Source of the DNA: Candidatus Buchananbacteria bacterium
GTDB taxonomy: Bacteria; Patescibacteriota; Patescibacteriia; 2-01-FULL-39-33
DNA length: 28,842 nt
Assembly: GCA_903907165.1 (NCBI GenBank)
Contig: CAIVNC010000016.1
Coordinates: 1-28,842 of the forward strand
Reading direction: 5' to 3'
Positions 1,941 to 22,847 of the stretch are shown here, piece by piece. The notes beneath the pieces are model-generated. The model worked only from the letters and a program-made list of their open reading frames with translations. It was not told the DNA's origin and searched no databases. The stretch's first letter is position 1, and every line of letters starts with the position of its first letter. Position numbers and translations under genes: made by a program.

Positions 1941-4466
1941 TTAAAATCTAGGTACTTCCGCCATCGCCGGCTTACCCAGCTGTCCAATCTTGGAACGCTC
2001 CAAGATCTCTCGCACCACCACTTGATTATCTCTACCATATTTGAGCCTAGACAATTCCTTGAGAGGCTGAGTGATTTCTTTATTGGCCTTGGCAATCACC
2101 GAAGGATGATAAGCTTTCATATTAAATGTATCCGTTGCCGTATTGTCGATAAGCAGACGAACATAAGCATTGTACTTTTCTACATTCATCAAATCATACT
2201 CACCCACTGCCGGCGCCAACTGCTTGGCCATTACCTCGCTATCATCCACACCAATCCGATAACAAACAATACTGCCAACGTTGCCAAAAACCGCATCCTT
2301 AACTTTGGTATCCGTGCCATTAACCAGCTGAGCAATATACTGATGAGCCATGACTAGGTTCAATTTGTATTTTCTAGCCTCAGCTAAAATAATGGAAATG
2401 CTATCGGTAATGAAATTCTGGAATTCATCAATATATAAATAGAAATCACGTCGTTGATCTTCTGGCATATCGGCACGAGCCAAAGCCGCCATCTGAAGCT
2501 TGGAAACGGCAATGAGACCAAGCAAGCTACAATTTGCATCGCCAATCTTACCCTTGGACAAATTCATCAACAAAATCTTGCCGCTGTCCATTACCTCGCG
2601 GAAATTAACACCAGATCTGCCCTGACCGATAATATTGCGCATCAATTCGTTTTCAACGAAACGGCCAGTCTTAGAAATAACATAAGACAACATGTCCGCG
2701 CCATTACTGCCCTTTTGCGAGGCTGTGTATTCACGTTCCCAAAAATCTTTAACTAAAATATCTTTAACATGAGTCAATTTTTCTTTACGGAAAGCATCGT
2801 CGGTAAAAATACGAGCCAGTTCAACAAGCGTGCAAGGATTTTCCGGATCAGCCATGAGAGCCAAAAGCGCATTTCTCATGTAATGTTCAAACATAGGACC
2901 AGCCATGGAAGGATCGGGCAACAGTTTATAGAAAATATTAATCATCTCCTGCGCTGCCTGATCCATTTCATAAAGACCATTGGCATCGAGCATATTAAGT
3001 CCGATCGGACGGCCAAAATCTGACGGATCAAAAATAATCACATCGTCAGCGCGTTCCTTTGGAATATAAGGCAAAATATCTTCTATGAGATTACCATGAG
3101 GATCAATAACACAAACACCTTTACCGGCAATAATATCCTGAATGGCCATAGTCGACATGGTCGTGGATTTACCAGTACCAGTCATACCGATGATATACAT
3201 ATGACGGCGACGATCAGCTTCTTTGATGCGAACCTGAACCGTATTGCCACGATAAGTATTTTCTCCGAGAACAACTCCCTCGGCCGGCAAGTTAAGTGGT
3301 GGCGCCAAACGTCTAGCCATAAGCCAGCGGATATTTGGCACTTCAGTATTTGGAAATGGCAAATGCCACAAGGAAGCCATCTCTTCGGAATTTAAAACGC
3401 AATTATTATTTTCATCAAACAAGCGATAAATAAAATTATTGATCGTCTTGTTTTCATTATTCTTAATTACCGCTTTGAAACCATTGGCATACTGATAATT
3501 GGAATACTGAGAAAAAGCATTAGCTACATATTTTACCGTATCTTTGGCTTGATGTTCCGTCTCAGCAAAAGCCACCAAGCGAATATTAACATCCATGCCA
3601 GCCTTAGAAGCCTTTTCTTCAATTGATTTAACCATTTGTTCTTCAAGCGGCGACAAACGATAATCCTTACTTTTATCTTCAACTGGTTTACTACTACCGG
3701 GCATCCAAGAATTAAGACTACCAAGAGGACTTCCCTGACTAGCCATAGCCTTTTTATAACTATTACCCTGTTGCATCTTGGAAGCGATTTTTACGCCGTT
3801 TTTGCGCCACTCCTTGCGAGCCGAGCGCATCAGAAACTGAATCGAGACTGTAACGCCTTCTGGCAACTTCGACAAAGCACTAAGCACATTAATCATTGGA
3901 TCACTCTCCATGCTTTTGTAGGTCAAAATCGGAAACATCTTGTCTTTAAGCAATTTAATATAACCGCCGGACACGTAACCACGATCGCGGAAAATGTTAT
4001 AGTCCTCAATTTCTTCAATCTGACAATGAGGATACTGGGATAAAATCTGTTGTTTGATATAGTCCTCAAGATACACCGGAATTGCCATGTAAAAAGTGAT
4101 CAAATGATCAGCTCCAACCACAACCTCAAACGACCAAGTATCATAACGTCCAAAAAGCCAAGTCTTAAAACCACGATGAGCGCGCAAACCACCAAGACTA
4201 GAATAAAAATTTTCGATGCCAGAAATAATTTCTTTAATATTTTTCTTGCCATCCTCTTCTTTGATTGCCACTCGCTGAGGCACAGTCAACATAAAAATTT
4301 TCTTCTGAAAAATCCCTGGGTAAACTTTATGATTAGCAAAAACCTTGCGCAAGATCAATAAGACAACAAAAACAAAGACGGCCAGACCAAGCAAGATGCC
4401 GGCTAGCAAAAGATAAGTAACAATATCTGGAGTTAAAATTGTATTGGAATCGATAGTGAAACCCAT
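1941..4466 (-). CDS. Membrane-anchored P-loop ATPase of the VirD4/TraG/TraD (T4SS coupling protein) / FtsK-HerA superfamily, 841 aa, with an N-terminal extension of unknown function
   Basis: N-terminal hydrophobic segment (LLLAGILLGLAVFVFVVLLIL). Walker A reads RHMYIIGMTGTGKSTTM, followed by CVIDPHGNL. Walker B-like reads FYLYIDEFQNF. These resemble TrwB/VirD4 motifs. About 330 aa between the TM segment and the ATPase core have no recognisable match. Confidence 0.7.
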   Translation of the reverse strand: MGFTIDSNTILTPDIVTYLLLAGILLGLAVFVFVVLLILRKVFANHKVYPGIFQKKIFMLTVPQRVAIKEEDGKKNIKEIISGIENFYSSLGGLRAHRGFKTWLFGRYDTWSFEVVVGADHLITFYMAIPVYLEDYIKQQILSQYPHCQIEEIEDYNIFRDRGYVSGGYIKLLKDKMFPILTYKSMESDPMINVLSALSKLPEGVTVSIQFLMRSARKEWRKNGVKIASKMQQGNSYKKAMASQGSPLGSLNSWMPGSSKPVEDKSKDYRLSPLEEQMVKSIEEKASKAGMDVNIRLVAFAETEHQAKDTVKYVANAFSQYSNYQYANGFKAVIKNNENKTINNFIYRLFDENNNCVLNSEEMASLWHLPFPNTEVPNIRWLMARRLAPPLNLPAEGVVLGENTYRGNTVQVRIKEADRRRHMYIIGMTGTGKSTTMSTMAIQDIIAGKGVCVIDPHGNLIEDILPYIPKERADDVIIFDPSDFGRPIGLNMLDANGLYEMDQAAQEMINIFYKLLPDPSMAGPMFEHYMRNALLALMADPENPCTLVELARIFTDDAFRKEKLTHVKDILVKDFWEREYTASQKGSNGADMLSYVISKTGRFVENELMRNIIGQGRSGVNFREVMDSGKILLMNLSKGKIGDANCSLLGLIAVSKLQMAALARADMPEDQRRDFYLYIDEFQNFITDSISIILAEARKYKLNLVMAHQYIAQLVNGTDTKVKDAVFGNVGSIVCYRIGVDDSEVMAKQLAPAVGEYDLMNVEKYNAYVRLLIDNTATDTFNMKAYHPSVIAKANKEITQPLKELSRLKYGRDNQVVVREILERSKIGQLGKPAMAEVPRF

Positions 4467-5053: not shown

Positions 5054-5998
5054 ATGGCCAACGAAAACATCAAAACCGTTCCCTCACCAAGCAACAAGTT
5101 TGCTTGGATTAATATTATTGATGCCGGCAAAAAAGAAATTGACTACTTGCGACGCAAATTCAAATTTAATACCTTGGATTTGGAAGATTGTTATGCTGAA
5201 CAATATGCCCAACGGCCAAAGTTCATCGTCAGGCAAAATTATTGCTTCTTAATTTTACAATTTCCAGTTTATAACCGCAAAGAAAAGTGTATTTATGCTG
5301 AAGAAATCGACTTTTTTATCACCAAGGATAATTTAATAACTGTTCACGGCAATCATTTACCACCGATTGTCGAGGTTTTTAATTCCTGCGAAAATGATGA
5401 CTTTCATCGTGGCCAATACATGGACGACGACATCGGCTATTTACTTTATGAAATCATTTCTCGCCTTCAGGAATACTGCTATCCCATTCTTGATCACGTC
5501 AGCCTGGATATCAAAAACATTGAAACAAATATTTTCAAGGATCGTGAAAAACAGATGATTGAAAATATCATGTTTATTAAAAAAAATATTTCTGACATCC
5601 GCAAAATTGTCGAAGCGCACAAAAACTCTTTACAAAAAATCCTTCATACCACTTCCCCATTTCTCAATCTCAAGCAAAATAAAAATTATTACAACCATCT
5701 AGTCGAAAACACTAAGGACATTTGGGATCTTCTTGGCGGACACAACGACCTCATCTCCTCTCTTGAGGATACCAACTCCACCCTCGTCTCGCTCAAGCTT
5801 AACAACATCATGAAAACCCTAACGGTTTTCTCGGTTATTATTCTACCACTAACTCTCCTTTCTGGCGTTTTTGGCATGAATACAGTTGACGGCATGCCAC
5901 TCGTCAACAATCCCAATGGCTTTTTTGTTATAGTTGGCTCAATGCTCACTATTGGCATGCTCATGTTTATTTACTTCAAAAGTCGTCGTTGGATTTAG
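5054..5998 (+). CDS. corA: CorA-family Mg2+/Co2+ transporter
   Basis: C-terminal two TM helices with the signature VFGMNTVDGMP (GMN motif). Length 314 aa. Confidence 0.85.
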   Translation: MANENIKTVPSPSNKFAWINIIDAGKKEIDYLRRKFKFNTLDLEDCYAEQYAQRPKFIVRQNYCFLILQFPVYNRKEKCIYAEEIDFFITKDNLITVHGNHLPPIVEVFNSCENDDFHRGQYMDDDIGYLLYEIISRLQEYCYPILDHVSLDIKNIETNIFKDREKQMIENIMFIKKNISDIRKIVEAHKNSLQKILHTTSPFLNLKQNKNYYNHLVENTKDIWDLLGGHNDLISSLEDTNSTLVSLKLNNIMKTLTVFSVIILPLTLLSGVFGMNTVDGMPLVNNPNGFFVIVGSMLTIGMLMFIYFKSRRWI

Positions 5999-9076: not shown

Positions 9077-9124
9077 ATATTTGGCTATTTCTTACCATTA
9101 CTTTACCTCTTTTTGAGTTTTTTT

Positions 9125-9157
9125 TCAAGTAAAAAGCCGGCTATGAAAAAGCCGGCT
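9125..9157 (-). terminator. Terminator after the small zinc-ribbon gene
   Basis: Minus strand: AGCCGGCU-UUUUCAU-AGCCGGCU followed by UUUUUACUUG. Each arm is itself palindromic. Confidence 0.45.
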
Positions 9158-9189
9158 GGATCAGAGCAAAGGACAGTAAGTGTTTCAAA

Positions 9190-9366
9190 TCAATTATCGA
9201 GCGATTTGCCTAGCATTTTACTATGACAATGCGGACAACTTTTTTCCAATTTCTTGGGAGAACGACTCTCTATTTGATACCCCAAATCATCAAAACCACA
9301 ACCACAGCACCGCCAGTGACAATCTTTTTCTTCTGGCACTACAACTTCTTTGGTTTTTTCTGACAT
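9190..9366 (-). CDS. Small zinc-ribbon protein (58 aa from MSEKTK; alternative start at 9387)
   Basis: CHWRCCGC...CPHCH cysteine/histidine cluster. The ORF-track 120-aa version extends through a highly structured upstream region, so it is probably over-extended. Confidence 0.45.
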   Translation of the reverse strand: MSEKTKEVVVPEEKDCHWRCCGCGFDDLGYQIESRSPKKLEKSCPHCHSKMLGKSLDN

Positions 9367-9414
9367 GATCTCATACCATCCTTTCATGGTTTTTAAGGAA
9401 CTGCAAAAAATCTT

Positions 9415-9541
9415 AGTAAGGCGACGGAAGATTTTATCTTCAATCAGCGTGGTGACCAATATCTCAATAATCAGCCATGGTGAGCCAACTATTACGGTTT
9501 TGATTCGGTGGGAATCAAACCTTGTGAGATACGTCGCCTTA
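9415..9541 (-). other. Structured RNA-like element closed by an 11-bp stem (GUAAGGCGACG / CGUCGCCUUAC) with nested hairpins; candidate riboswitch or structured leader
   Basis: Minus strand: the closing stem encloses UAUCUCA/UGAGAUA, GGUUUGAUUC-CCACC-GAAUCAAACC and GAAGAU-AAA-AUCUUC helices. It lies between a terminator and the zinc-ribbon start codon. Confidence 0.3.
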
Positions 9542-9566
9542 CTGACCTGCAAATAAAGAACGATTT

Positions 9567-9599
9567 ATAAAAAAACAAAAACCGGTCCACTGGGACCGG
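9567..9599 (-). terminator. Strong rho-independent terminator
   Basis: Minus strand: CCGGUCC-cagu-GGACCGG followed by UUUUUGUUUUUUUAU. Confidence 0.65.
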
Positions 9600-9692
9600 G
9601 CTTTATTTGAGCAAACAACCAAAAAGCGCCAAGTCCCTAGACCGGCAACAAGACGACTACTGTTTGGTTAATTTGCTGATGTTTTTTCATAT
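9568..9692 (-). ncRNA. Candidate ~125-nt small transcript (sRNA or leaderless 17-codon micro-ORF MKKHQQINQTVVVLLPV)
   Basis: It is bounded by a perfect consensus promoter and a strong terminator. An internal 13-bp imperfect stem (AGCAAA-uu-AACCAAA / UUUGGUU-g-UUUGCU) is present. An ATG lies about 7 nt after the -10. Confidence 0.3.
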
Positions 9693-9698
9693 ACTGAT

Positions 9699-9727
9699 AT
9701 TATATAGAATATTTTTTAATTAGTCAA
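9699..9727 (-). promoter_or_regulatory. Perfect sigma70 consensus promoter TTGACT-17-TATAAT
   Basis: Minus-strand read: TTGACTaattaaaaaatattctaTATAAT. -35 at 9722-9727, -10 at 9699-9704. Confidence 0.55.
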
Positions 9728-9763
9728 AAAGAAAGACCGTCAGAGCATTTTGCCCTGACGGTC
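9725..9763 (-). terminator. Terminator immediately after the flotillin gene
   Basis: Minus strand: GACCGUCAG-ggcaaaaugcu-CUGACGGUC followed by UUUCUUUUUG. Confidence 0.5.
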
Positions 9764-9807
9764 AGCGATTTTAAAAATCGAAATTACTACAATGCATTTG
9801 AAGATGA

Positions 9808-11673
9808 TCAGTCGACTTTGGCTTCAACCGGCGCAGCCTTCTTGGCGACCGACTGAGGAGCGACACCTTTGGCCGAATCCTGATTCTTTACGATCATTTG
9901 GGCCAGCAGGATGTCAGCAATATTGTTGCTGCCACTGCCAGAACCACTGATCATGATATCGGGCACCAGTTTGATCTTGTTGCTAGCCAAAGCGTTGGCG
10001 ATTTGCACCGCGGCGTAGTTACCAGACTCCATCGAATTAATCTTAAGCTGGGTCACTTCGGCCTCGGCACTACCGATCGCCTTGATCTTGCCAGCTTCGG
10101 CGTTACCAACAGTCGTCGTGACCATTGCGTCGGCTTCGGCGTTGACCTTCTTGGACTCGGCCTGACCCTTGGCATTTTCGATAGCCGCCTGAGCCTCAAA
10201 GTTGGCAATCGTCACTTTGCGCTCGGAAGCCACAACGTTGGCCTGGGTGGCAGCCATGGCCTTGGACTGCTCCAATTCCTTGCGAGTGTCTTCAGCCATC
10301 TGCTGAGTCTGGAAAGTCACCTTTTGCTGTTCGGCGATTTTCCGATCCGTGAGCGTTTTCATCAGATCTTCCGGCGGGACGATATCGCCAATCAGCGTAT
10401 CGATGGCTCCGACATTATACTCTTCCAGAGCCCGGCCGATTTGCTTCTTGGCGTCTTCCTGGCGAGCTTGACGCTCAGCCAGAAACTCGATCACATCTGA
10501 GCCCTGAGCGGCGTTTCGGAAGTAGTTACCGATTGTCGGCTCCAGCACCTGAGTAACCAGGTTACTCACTGATCCGAACATCGCGATAACCCTTGGCGCG
10601 TAGTTGCGACAGATGTTGATGATCTGGGCAACGTCCAAGTTGAACGTGAAGCCGTCGGAGGAGCGCACCTTGATCGTACAAAGATTCTTATCAAGGTTGT
10701 GCGCTTCGCTTTTGCCAGTCGCCCAGTTCAGGACGATATTGGCGGTCGGAACGTTTTCCACGCGATGGGTTCTGGTGTTAATAGGGTACATGCCAGGATC
10801 GAGAGGATCAACCCAGACACCTCTTTCTCCGTGACTGACCAGATTACCATGCTTGAATCCGTCGCCAGTGACATCCTTGCCAGCTTCGCCGACATAGGAA
10901 ATAACGACACCAACGTGAGCAATGGGCACAGTCGTCATTTCCACCATTTCGACTGAAACTAGCCATGGATTGAAAAAGTAACAACCAGCCAGAATCACCT
11001 GTTCCTGAAGACCTTTAAAACCCCCATTGTCGAGGAAAGCCTGGCCGTTCTGAAACATACTGTGATTGGGAATTTCCGGTCCGGCAATTTCACCAGACGG
11101 AAGCGGCTTACCTTCTTTGGTCGTCACAATCCCAACCTTGCCATCCTCGATCTCAACGACGTCGGTCGTATTAATCGTAAACAACGAGGTGTTTATCCTG
11201 TACGTTCCAGGAGGAATGATCGCAATTTGGGGACCGCGCTCACCGCCATTACTGAGAAATTCGCGCGCATTTTGGAAAAGATCACATTCGACGTGCTTGG
11301 CCAAAATCCGGCCGGCCGAGATAGGCCTGCCATCACGTGACTCAACCACACCAATCCAACCTTTCTTGATTGTGATGAAATCCTCAATCACGATCTCATA
11401 CTGCCAGGGCCAATAACCCCAATGCAGTCCTGGCGCCAACGTATCGGCCTGGATACCGGCTTCACCCTTCAGGGCAATAATCTGCCCATCGGAAAGATTC
11501 CGGTTTGCTCCGAACAGCACGAACTTTTTGTTGACGATACCGATGGAGCTCTGGGGGATAATCACTATCCCGAACAAACGGAAAGTCCAGCGGTAACAGG
11601 CGACGAATAGAAAACAACCGATGATGGCAAAAAGCCACCAGTGACTCAGGGTCCAACCGATCAGCGTCTCCAT
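9808..11673 (-). CDS. Flotillin-like SPFH/band-7 family membrane protein (621 aa)
   Basis: N-terminal TM segment, internally duplicated FLSNGGERGPQ / FLDNGGFKGLQ segments, and a C-terminal Ala/Glu/Gln-rich coiled-coil flotillin tail (VGNAEAGKIKAIGSAEAEV). GC is clearly higher than in neighbouring genes. Confidence 0.75.
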   Translation of the reverse strand: METLIGWTLSHWWLFAIIGCFLFVACYRWTFRLFGIVIIPQSSIGIVNKKFVLFGANRNLSDGQIIALKGEAGIQADTLAPGLHWGYWPWQYEIVIEDFITIKKGWIGVVESRDGRPISAGRILAKHVECDLFQNAREFLSNGGERGPQIAIIPPGTYRINTSLFTINTTDVVEIEDGKVGIVTTKEGKPLPSGEIAGPEIPNHSMFQNGQAFLDNGGFKGLQEQVILAGCYFFNPWLVSVEMVEMTTVPIAHVGVVISYVGEAGKDVTGDGFKHGNLVSHGERGVWVDPLDPGMYPINTRTHRVENVPTANIVLNWATGKSEAHNLDKNLCTIKVRSSDGFTFNLDVAQIINICRNYAPRVIAMFGSVSNLVTQVLEPTIGNYFRNAAQGSDVIEFLAERQARQEDAKKQIGRALEEYNVGAIDTLIGDIVPPEDLMKTLTDRKIAEQQKVTFQTQQMAEDTRKELEQSKAMAATQANVVASERKVTIANFEAQAAIENAKGQAESKKVNAEADAMVTTTVGNAEAGKIKAIGSAEAEVTQLKINSMESGNYAAVQIANALASNKIKLVPDIMISGSGSGSNNIADILLAQMIVKNQDSAKGVAPQSVAKKAAPVEAKVD

Positions 11674-22052: not shown

Positions 22053-22565
22053 TTAAGACTTCTTTTCTTTAATGGCATTCAAGGTGTAAACTAAACATCT
22101 TAAATTGCCTTGAAGCACATTGACGAATCCTGACAATGGAGAAGCGATTGATCCGACGACCTTGGCCAGCAACTCTTGCTTGGATGGCAATCTGGACAAT
22201 GCCTTGACTTTATCAGCTGTGATAAACTGTCCCTCGAGCACACCGCCGACAATCTTGGCTTTATCATGGGTCTTGGCAAAAGCAGCGATGACCTTGGCTG
22301 GAGCAACTTCGTCTTGGCGTCCGAATAGGACAGCAACTTCTCCACTTAGATCAGCATCGTAGCCTTTTTCAGCCAAAACTTTTTTGAGTAAAGTTTTCTT
22401 GGCGACTTTGTAACCGATGTTTTCTTTACGGCAATCATTTCTTAACAAATTGATTTCCTTAACTGGCAAACCGAAGTAGTTAAAAAATACTGCAGACTTC
22501 ATTCCATTAACCTCTTCCTGCAAGGAAGAAACGATGGATTCTTTTTGTGTTCTTGTTTTTGGCAT
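22053..22565 (-). CDS. rplJ: 50S ribosomal protein L10
   Basis: MPKTRTQKESIVSSLQEEV... typical L10 N-terminus. The start is taken at the second Met (22565) rather than the ORF-track 22598. rplJ-rplL order. Confidence 0.85.
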   Translation of the reverse strand: MPKTRTQKESIVSSLQEEVNGMKSAVFFNYFGLPVKEINLLRNDCRKENIGYKVAKKTLLKKVLAEKGYDADLSGEVAVLFGRQDEVAPAKVIAAFAKTHDKAKIVGGVLEGQFITADKVKALSRLPSKQELLAKVVGSIASPLSGFVNVLQGNLRCLVYTLNAIKEKKS

Positions 22566-22690
22566 AAAATAAAAAAATCTGCGTTTTTCCGCAGACAATC
22601 TAAAGTGACTTGGTAGTCATTTTTGATCTCCTCGGCAAGGAATTAAGCCTCTCGGCACTTGCTGTCTGTGGAAAACCTATACTTATTAAA
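22566..22690 (-). promoter_or_regulatory. rplJ 5' leader with L10-leader-like stems and a terminator-type attenuator hairpin abutting the start codon
   Basis: Minus strand: GCAAG-[GCC-gaga-GGC...]-CUUGC stems, then UCUGCG-gaaaaa-CGCAGA followed by UUUUUUUAUUUU-AUG. Ribosomal L10 operons are known to be autoregulated through such leaders. Confidence 0.45.
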
Positions 22691-22818: not shown

Positions 22819-22847
22819 TTGACAAAAATCAAATTATTCAATATAAT
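22819..22847 (+). promoter_or_regulatory. Perfect consensus promoter TTGACA-17-TATAAT
   Basis: -35 at 22819-22824, -10 at 22842-22847. It drives the two small genes at 22901 and 23247. Confidence 0.55.

Follow-up and report, generated by a model that had tools for sequence, protein, structure and literature searches.

A probable leaderless leader-peptide attenuator in front of a small cysteine-rich gene of Patescibacteria

Introduction

Leader-peptide attenuators are textbook biology, and those of leu, ilvGMEDA and ilvBN in E. coli and Salmonella are the classical examples for branched-chain amino-acid operons. To our knowledge, Patescibacteria, or Candidate Phyla Radiation (CPR) bacteria, are generally without amino-acid biosynthesis, and we know of hardly any exploration of gene regulation in this group. 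Outside the enterobacteria, a three-hairpin attenuator has been described for ilvBNC of C. glutamicum (PMC11857589), and leaderless leader-peptide attenuators have been described or predicted in Corynebacterium (PMC3890552, PMC11857589). In Deinococcus deserti, 14 leaderless leader peptides have been predicted, including the 10-aa leader of cysS with two Cys (PMC4007540), while mycobacteria carry polycysteine leaderless short ORFs (bioRxiv 10.1101/834739). Furthermore, the sRNA rnTrpL originates from the trp attenuator of Sinorhizobium (PMC6614838). Our literature search found no report of transcription attenuation in CPR/Patescibacteria.

Here we analysed a promoter-to-terminator unit on the minus strand of a 28,842-nt stretch of patescibacterial DNA (the window), for which a first-pass annotation had offered two readings, an sRNA or a leaderless 17-codon peptide. 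The unit is probably the 5' leader of a Cys-rich gene, acting as a ribosome-mediated transcription attenuator of the trp/leu type with a leaderless Leu/Val-rich peptide. We base this on its conservation, the maintained reading frame, the Leu enrichment, the covarying pairing of a leader segment (b) with the 5' arm of the terminator (c), the position of the stop codon and the missing room for a promoter in front of the downstream ORF of three relatives.

Results

A promoter-to-terminator unit with a micro-ORF at the predicted start site

The sigma70 promoter TTGACT-17-TATAAT of the first-pass annotation is present on the minus strand with a score of 11/12, its -35 element lying at 9727-9722 and its -10 element at 9704-9699, separated by the 17-nt spacer. 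TTGAC-N18-TATAAT occurs twice in the 28.8-kb window, compared with 0.02 occurrences expected from shuffles. The other perfect copy (22819-22847, plus strand) is situated by a ribosomal protein L10 leader (Rfam RF00557, 62.6 bits; 22561-22689, minus strand) and is followed by a ~50-nt 5' UTR containing a Shine-Dalgarno (SD) sequence, and is thus not leaderless; we found no other leaderless micro-ORF behind a strong promoter within the window.

The ATG that had been placed at the predicted +1 (9690-9688) lies 8 nt past the -10 element and opens a 17-codon ORF ending with UAG at 9639-9637. Likewise, the strong terminator is found at 9599-9582, continuing into the U-run UUUUUGUUUUUUU, with an energy of -17 kcal/mol for the extended hairpin. 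Start site, translation and termination are predicted here from consensus. The SPFH/Band_7 ('flotillin') gene (11673-9808, minus) closes with a terminator of its own, confirming the location of the unit after this gene and between two terminators (Table 1). The interrupted-stem fold proposed for the RNA body was recovered as the long hairpin P1, and the whole leader RNA folds at -42 to -44 kcal/mol (z = -4.1 to -5.0, dinucleotide shuffles).

Table 1 Features of the leader and of its surroundings. Positions refer to the window, unless a related locus is named.
Feature	Position	Strand	Evidence or remark
Terminator of the upstream SPFH/Band_7 gene	9735-9763	minus	13-bp stem, then UUUCUUUUU; insulates the unit from read-through
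Sigma-70-type promoter TTGACT-17-TATAAT	9699-9727	minus	TTGAC(A/T) equivalent in 6/6 related loci
Predicted leaderless leader ORF MKKHQQINQTVVVLLPV	9637-9690	minus	ORF, frame and hydrophobic core kept in L083, L084, L085, L166, L172, L174
In-frame Leu-Leu codons UUG UUG, proposed control codons	9646-9651	minus	Last A-site positions leaving segment b free (footprint model)
Segment a (UUGCCGGUCU), final ORF codons, pairs with b	9639-9648	minus	a:b duplex -10.5 kcal/mol
P1, long interrupted hairpin (putative anti-antiterminator), 5' half within the ORF	9610-9677	minus	MFE and centroid folds
Segment b (AGGGACUUGGCGCUUUU; core GGGACUUGG, 9637-9629), partner of a or c	9622-9638	minus	b:c -18.4 kcal/mol, reached by 1.7% of shuffles
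Segment c (UAAAGCCCGGUCCCA), terminator 5' arm, putative antiterminator partner of b	9591-9605	minus	Duplex energies
Intrinsic terminator CCGGUCC-CAGU-GGACCGG with U-run	9567-9599	minus	Sequence
139-nt structured insertion in the leader, outside the conserved unit	9408-9546	minus	Fold z = -5.5; absent in relatives
Proposed regulated gene, 58-aa Cys-rich zinc-ribbon-like ORF, 6 Cys	9190-9366	minus	Cys-rich ORFs at the equivalent position in relatives
Cys-rich ORFs 5' of cysS in relatives	L085 5576-5914; L172 2441-2874; L083 692-1069; L084 248-766; L167 1533-1763		Also in L174
Terminator and promoter-like site of cysS	Window 9100-9157; L085 ~5915-5990; L172 and L174 ~2900-2985; L166 ~2900-2960		

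Rfam assigned no family to the leader at its gathering threshold, nor did a scan of 9150-9900 relaxed to E<=10; SRP, 6S and T-box models were without a match, and the best match reached 25.5 bits (threshold 55), lying mostly on the terminator. ARAGORN found neither tRNA nor tmRNA in the unit. An identity as SRP RNA, 6S RNA, tmRNA, tRNA or T-box riboswitch was therefore rejected, which agrees with the earlier remark that the unit resembles neither SRP RNA nor tRNA. Within the window, scans yielded no second copy of the unit, no paralogues and no clear target match.

The 5' end of the leader, AUGAAAAAACA (9680-9691), can pair with the U-tail of the terminator (9566-9577) over 12 nt with 92% complementarity, which would close the terminated RNA end to end, and a similar pairing appears in the fold of L084. 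Such pairing may stabilise the terminated leader or may be incidental A/U complementarity; where it appeared in the MFE structure, we set it aside as the latter.

As to the surroundings, the Band_7 gene has a GC content of 47-54% compared with ~40% in its neighbours, two ENA contigs (L081 and L082) both start at 9738, inside its terminator, and murF is directly 5' of the cysS region in several relatives (L167, L168 and L086). Taken together, these observations imply that the Band_7 gene, whose product has no exact match on record, may be a recent and variably present insertion.

The unit recurs 5' of cysS in related lineages

Reading the DNA 5' of cysS genome by genome, we recognised the unit in six further loci (L083, L084, L085, L166, L172 and L174, to which L175 is identical) from five other Parcubacteria-like lineages, and this conservation in other genomes indicates that the combination of promoter and terminator is more than chance. 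The cysteinyl-tRNA synthetases (CysRS) of these relatives are 62-67% identical to that of the window, the nearest CysRS relatives being labelled Buchananbacteria, Falkowbacteria or 'Parcubacteria group' with best identities of only 60-67%. By its CysRS, the contig of the window belongs to Patescibacteria and is Parcubacteria-like. In every related locus the unit precedes one or more small Cys-rich ORFs adjoining cysS, and the synteny 3' of the unit (cysS-dus-x-corA-x-traG-like) is common to the window and its relatives.

The unit is absent from L167, L168, L171, L176, L086 and other relatives. Searching 80 cysS loci from GTDB genomes with the unit by blastn and nhmmer gave no match because the relatives are too distant; motif scans of these loci and of 80 JGI metagenome loci found nothing, and a profile search across all 176 loci returned the known members only. 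The contigs carrying the downstream ORF are just two short ENA contigs (L081, L082), which are 100% identical to the window and consequently give no covariation information. The locus is present in the assemblies ERZ27313081 and ERZ18625396. All comparisons below are drawn from six lineages only, among which the window and L084 are alike in b and c, and L172 and L174 are close relatives.

The leader peptide is conserved in frame and rich in leucine

TTGAC(A/T) promoters are present in every copy, and the gap between -10 element and ATG measures 6-8 nt in six of the seven loci and 14 nt in L083, corresponding to a ~7-nt 5' UTR. The ORFs comprise 16-26 codons and encode MKKHQQINQTVVVLLPV in the window, MKIVNSINLVVLLLVT in L084, MKHNSQNLVLVLLLACRG in L166, MKTISRTNLLLGLLLRLSGG in L085, MNKTFIQNLLGLLLLLTKGGSIDIA in L083, MNTTFTQKSALLLGLLLPSGSECFVM in L172 and MNKTITQKSALLLGLLLPSGSECFVM in L174. 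An in-frame Leu-Leu pair was found in all seven, at distances from the ATG of 39 (window), 33, 33, 36, 33, 42 and 42 nt, which are all multiples of three, showing that indels have kept the reading frame. Between the loci, Asn codons vary (AAC or AAT), as do the Leu and Val codons at the hydrophobic positions, which show synonymous variation. In particular, L174 and L172 have ALLLGLLLPSGSECFVM in common despite UUG->CUA and CUA->CUG changes, suggesting constraint on leucine and not on the string CUUGUUG. Conservation of the micro-ORF as amino acids, a check that had been named beforehand, was hence seen for frame and hydrophobic core and is accompanied by synonymous Leu changes. Of the two readings first offered, it is the leaderless peptide that gains from this comparison, with the ATG at the start site and the frame kept in seven loci.

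Leucine accounts for 31 of the 122 leader-peptide residues pooled over the loci (25%), compared with 9.4% in the window proteome (p = 2e-7), UUG being the commonest Leu codon in this genome. The window peptide itself contains two Leu only, next to four Val and one Ile, so that the sensed amino acid is uncertain; leucine, or the general rate of elongation, may be the signal. In six of the seven loci UUG UUG (CUUGUUG) is identical, which hints at an additional constraint at the nucleotide or codon level.

Conservation of this kind might also be expected of an ordinary small-protein gene without any switch, whose 16-26-aa hydrophobic product would be membrane-active or resemble a type I toxin. 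The pattern M-K/N...N-(L/V)n-L-L is conserved at the amino-acid level with synonymous changes, and SD-led ORFs (MKKHSQKSLLV... in L086, MKKKSWLD... in L168) are located at the equivalent place in sister lineages, both of which fit this explanation. However, the loci differ in peptide length and C-terminus, 6-10 hydrophobic residues in a row fall short of a membrane span, and the plus strand has no promoter-like site across 9567-9727 from which an antisense RNA could start. Moreover, a plain small-protein gene leaves unexplained the b:c covariation, the fixed spacing from the Leu pair to b and the stop codon positioned in b, as well as the finding that control terminators lack such pairing (all below). 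We consider this explanation decidedly unlikely, and a type I toxin-antitoxin system of the Ibs/Ldr kind was rejected on the short hydrophobic run and the missing plus-strand promoter.

Both SD-led ORFs encode small basic products and lie between murF and cysS (L086, 3713-3835, MKKHSQKSLLVRIWQ...; L168, 3798-3911, MKKKSWLDRLMM...). The first 18 nt of the former resemble the start of the window micro-ORF, and the two ORFs may be related or ancestral to the leader peptide.

Segment b is complementary to the terminator 5' arm in every locus

All seven loci end in a GC-rich hairpin with U-run, and in every locus the 5' arm of this terminator, c, has a complementary segment, b, shortly after the Leu pair, so that b resembles the 3' arm d. 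The b/c pairs are GGGACUUGG/CCCGGUCCC in the window, GGGACC/GGUCCC in L084, GGGUGGA/UCCACCC in L083, GGCGG/CCGCC in L085, GGCUAGG/CCUAGCC in L166 and GGGGAGUG/CGCUCCCC in L172. The b:c duplexes have energies of -11 to -18 kcal/mol, with b as the best upstream partner of c, and these energies are reached by 0.4-8.5% of the dinucleotide shuffles of each leader (Fisher combined p = 1.3e-6). When the six leaders were combined with the six terminators in all 720 assignments, the native one had the lowest total energy. Within the six-bp b:c core, both partners change at four positions and pairing is kept in 97% of cells, a count that is descriptive only since the core register was hand-picked from the duplex result. 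As a control, the second terminator, located 5' of cysS, showed no upstream complementarity in any locus (fractions 0.30-0.98).

The alternative partner of b, segment a, consists of the closing codons of the ORF in three loci (window, L084 and L166) and of codons 2-7 in L083, L085, L172 and L174, where the a:b hairpin encloses the Leu run. Hairpins equivalent to P1 are found in all relatives with differing arm sequences. RNAalifold on a MAFFT alignment did not recover P1, the alignment being too poor, and returned only an a:d pairing, which follows from the likeness of a to c and of b to d.

The position of b relative to the Leu codons is confined as well, b beginning 13-19 nt past the first nucleotide of the Leu pair. 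Assuming that a ribosome shields 12 nt 3' of the A site, we folded the nascent RNA as it stands immediately before transcription of d. In this model, the antiterminator is complete (-16 to -24 kcal/mol) with the A site at or before the Leu pair and collapses one to two codons past it in six out of six lineages. In five of these lineages, the stop codon falls within b or next to it, and hence a ribosome completing the peptide would mask b. In the absence of a ribosome, the MFE structure consists of P1 and the terminator in five of the six lineages, with L166 as the exception. At equilibrium, L172 and L085 favour the terminator even if a ribosome has stalled at the Leu pair, and L083 does so as long as the stall has not arrived at that pair, so that the attenuator model needs kinetic pre-emption, the competition between the structures being presumably kinetic. 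As modelled, the arrangement of P1, antiterminator and terminator is the 1:2 / 2:3 / 3:4 logic of the trp and leu attenuators.

The alternative of b:c and c:d pairing fits any trigger, including an RNA-binding protein, an uncharged tRNA as in T-boxes, or a small ligand acting on the conserved apical sequence. The unchanged UUG UUG in six of the seven loci, the out-of-frame UGU/UGC (Cys) triplets within this motif, the position of the unit near cysS, and the b segment GGGUGGA of L083, which resembles the T-box core, would all be in line with such a non-ribosomal switch. Against it, Rfam has no T-box or riboswitch match even at E<=10, the apical region has no conserved fold across the loci, and the motif is altered in L174 by synonymous changes. 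In addition, frame-preserving indels, an AUG at the start site and Leu enrichment are unexpected for an untranslated aptamer. We regard a non-ribosomal trigger as unlikely; its T-box-like variant, based on the UGU/UGC triplets, is not supported, given the missing Rfam match and the synonymous changes of L174.

In three relatives the downstream gene has no room for a promoter of its own

In L083, L084 and L085, the Cys-rich ORF begins 35-55 nt past the terminator, and the spacer holds a ribosome-binding site (RBS) only and could not accommodate a promoter. L172 likewise has a short gap, with an RBS before the ATG, and that of L166 amounts to ~170 nt. The spacer of the window is interrupted by the 139-nt insertion, which has inverted ends (AGUAAGGCGACG) and is flanked by the 7-bp direct repeats TTTGCAG at 9553-9547 and 9407-9401; removal of the element and one copy of the repeat leaves ~57 nt, similar to the short spacers of the relatives. 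The inverted ends read AGTAAGGCGACG/CGTCGCCTTACT. The element looks like a MITE-like insertion into the leader; it has no second copy in the window and no Rfam match, and is absent from all related loci. It contains a weak promoter-like site (9458-9431, 9/12) between attenuator and ORF, which could partly bypass the attenuator in the window.

Public gene calls place a 120-aa ORF here, starting from TTG 9552 (9190-9552, minus), the N-terminal 62 residues of which overlap the insertion and are without homologues. The database call is therefore likely over-extended, the true start being ATG 9366 of the 58-aa ORF with 6 Cys. Among 1.8 billion representatives, this zinc-ribbon protein has no homologue but itself, and against Pfam it gives sub-threshold, weak zinc-ribbon matches only. 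The Cys-rich ORFs of the loci are fast-evolving, with little in common beyond CxxC-type patterns, and have neither a family assignment nor a known link to leucine. Directly 5' of cysS, there are one or two such small ORFs with 5-14 Cys, CxxC patterns and, in several, C-x-x-C-G-F, barely alignable with one another; L167 has a Cys-rich ORF before cysS without the attenuator.

The gene cysS itself is preceded by a separate terminator and a conserved promoter-like site, TTG(C/A)(C/A)AAAAA-N12-TA(A/G)A(C/G/A)T, into which the U-tail of that terminator runs. With this terminator and promoter assigned to cysS, the attenuator most likely controls the Cys-rich ORF(s) only. A further possibility, attenuation of cysS through Cys sensing by the Cys-rich ORF, was rejected, the cysS terminator having no significant upstream complementarity and cysS having its own promoter. 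Right after the U-run of the leader terminator, GTTCTTT is common to five loci (window 9555-9561; L172 ~2391; L174 ~2358; L085 ~5541; L083 ~646) and shows partial complementarity to the purine-rich RBS in front of the downstream ORF; it could add a layer of translational control or merely form a U-rich tail.

The spacer bears on the other reading first offered, a stand-alone trans-acting sRNA of ~125 nt in which the ORF is incidental and the CUUGUUG region serves as seed for target mRNAs. A discrete strong promoter, a strong terminator and a stable fold are what such an RNA would have, six of the seven loci have an identical CUUGUUG, and attenuator-derived RNAs can work in trans, as exemplified by rnTrpL (PMC6614838). 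However, frame and ATG at the start site are conserved with indels in multiples of three, and the putative seed consists of in-frame Leu codons that are synonymously changed in L174. A simple sRNA would have no use for the covarying b:c pairing, and in the spacers that we examined (L083, L084 and L085) a separate promoter for the downstream ORF would not fit. Furthermore, neither an Rfam family nor a second copy or clear target match in the window was found. A simple sRNA thus appears very improbable. Read-through from the promoter into the zinc-ribbon gene, which the first-pass annotation had named as the case opposing its stand-alone unit, is the one now favoured, as regulated read-through. 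By analogy with rnTrpL, the terminated leader of the attenuator could also act in trans, besides attenuation.

Discussion

Judged by its sequence, the unit has the constituents of leader-peptide attenuators, namely an ORF, in-frame Leu codons, a terminator, a predicted antiterminator and the corresponding geometry. In the mechanism that we propose, transcription would start at or within 2 nt of the AUG, so that a ribosome could load directly on the 5' end, initiate leaderless and translate the 16-26-codon Leu/Val-rich peptide. Without a ribosome, segment a (or the 5' half of P1) would pair with b, leaving c:d to form the terminator, and the transcript would end at the U-run. A ribosome that has arrived at the stop codon, in or next to b, would cover b with the same outcome, c:d formation and termination. 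A ribosome stalled at UUG UUG, for example when Leu-tRNA is short, would instead cover a and expose b, and the free b would pair with c before d is made, so that no terminator forms and RNA polymerase would enter the Cys-rich ORF.

A broader interpretation, which we regard as possible but doubtful, is that a leaderless Leu-codon attenuator in auxotrophic, host-dependent Patescibacteria would serve as a general sensor of amino-acid supply and not as biosynthesis feedback, inducing cysS-linked Cys-rich zinc-ribbon proteins, with the abundant terminated leader doubling as a regulatory RNA or peptide. If the conserved attenuator is real, it would provide a concrete and testable case of transcription-translation coupling in CPR, an example of leaderless initiation in this group, and a means of sensing amino-acid supply in bacteria unable to make their own amino acids, with an unannotated family of Cys-rich proteins as its starvation-responsive output. 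For comparable promoter-to-terminator units, a leader should be considered before the name sRNA is given.

In comparison with known systems, the mechanism is familiar, and what is unusual are the host and the target, a fast-evolving Cys-rich protein instead of a biosynthetic operon or an aminoacyl-tRNA synthetase. The unit resembles the leu and ilv attenuators and ilvBNC of C. glutamicum (PMC11857589) in its short Leu/Val-rich leader ORF, in its three predicted, mutually exclusive hairpins (anti-antiterminator, antiterminator and terminator), in a stop codon placed where a finishing ribosome would mask segment 2, and in an intrinsic terminator before the structural gene. It differs from these in that its target is a small Cys-rich protein and not a biosynthetic operon, and enterobacterial leaders use an SD sequence whereas the window unit is predicted to be leaderless. 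Unlike the classical attenuator hosts, its host is a Patescibacteria/CPR bacterium.

The predicted leaderless leaders of D. deserti (PMC4007540) are close in another respect, because there transcription begins right at the AUG of a very short peptide followed by a terminator, and one of them belongs to a cysS locus as well. That leader is Cys-rich and directly 5' of cysS, whereas here the leader is Leu-rich, a Cys-rich ORF intervenes, and cysS is served by a conserved promoter of its own, its terminator lacking an antiterminator signal. The mycobacterial short ORFs (bioRxiv 10.1101/834739) are likewise leaderless sensory micro-ORFs, in which ribosome occupancy remodels the downstream RNA and thereby controls the genes of an operon, but they sense cysteine and act on translation by exposing the RBS, in contrast to the intrinsic terminator and the Leu codons of the unit presented here. 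Finally, rnTrpL (PMC6614838), an attenuator transcript that contains a leader ORF and is terminated at ~110 nt, is comparable to the terminated form proposed here, for which we found no evidence for trans targets, and it illustrates that 'attenuator' and 'sRNA' are compatible descriptions of one RNA.
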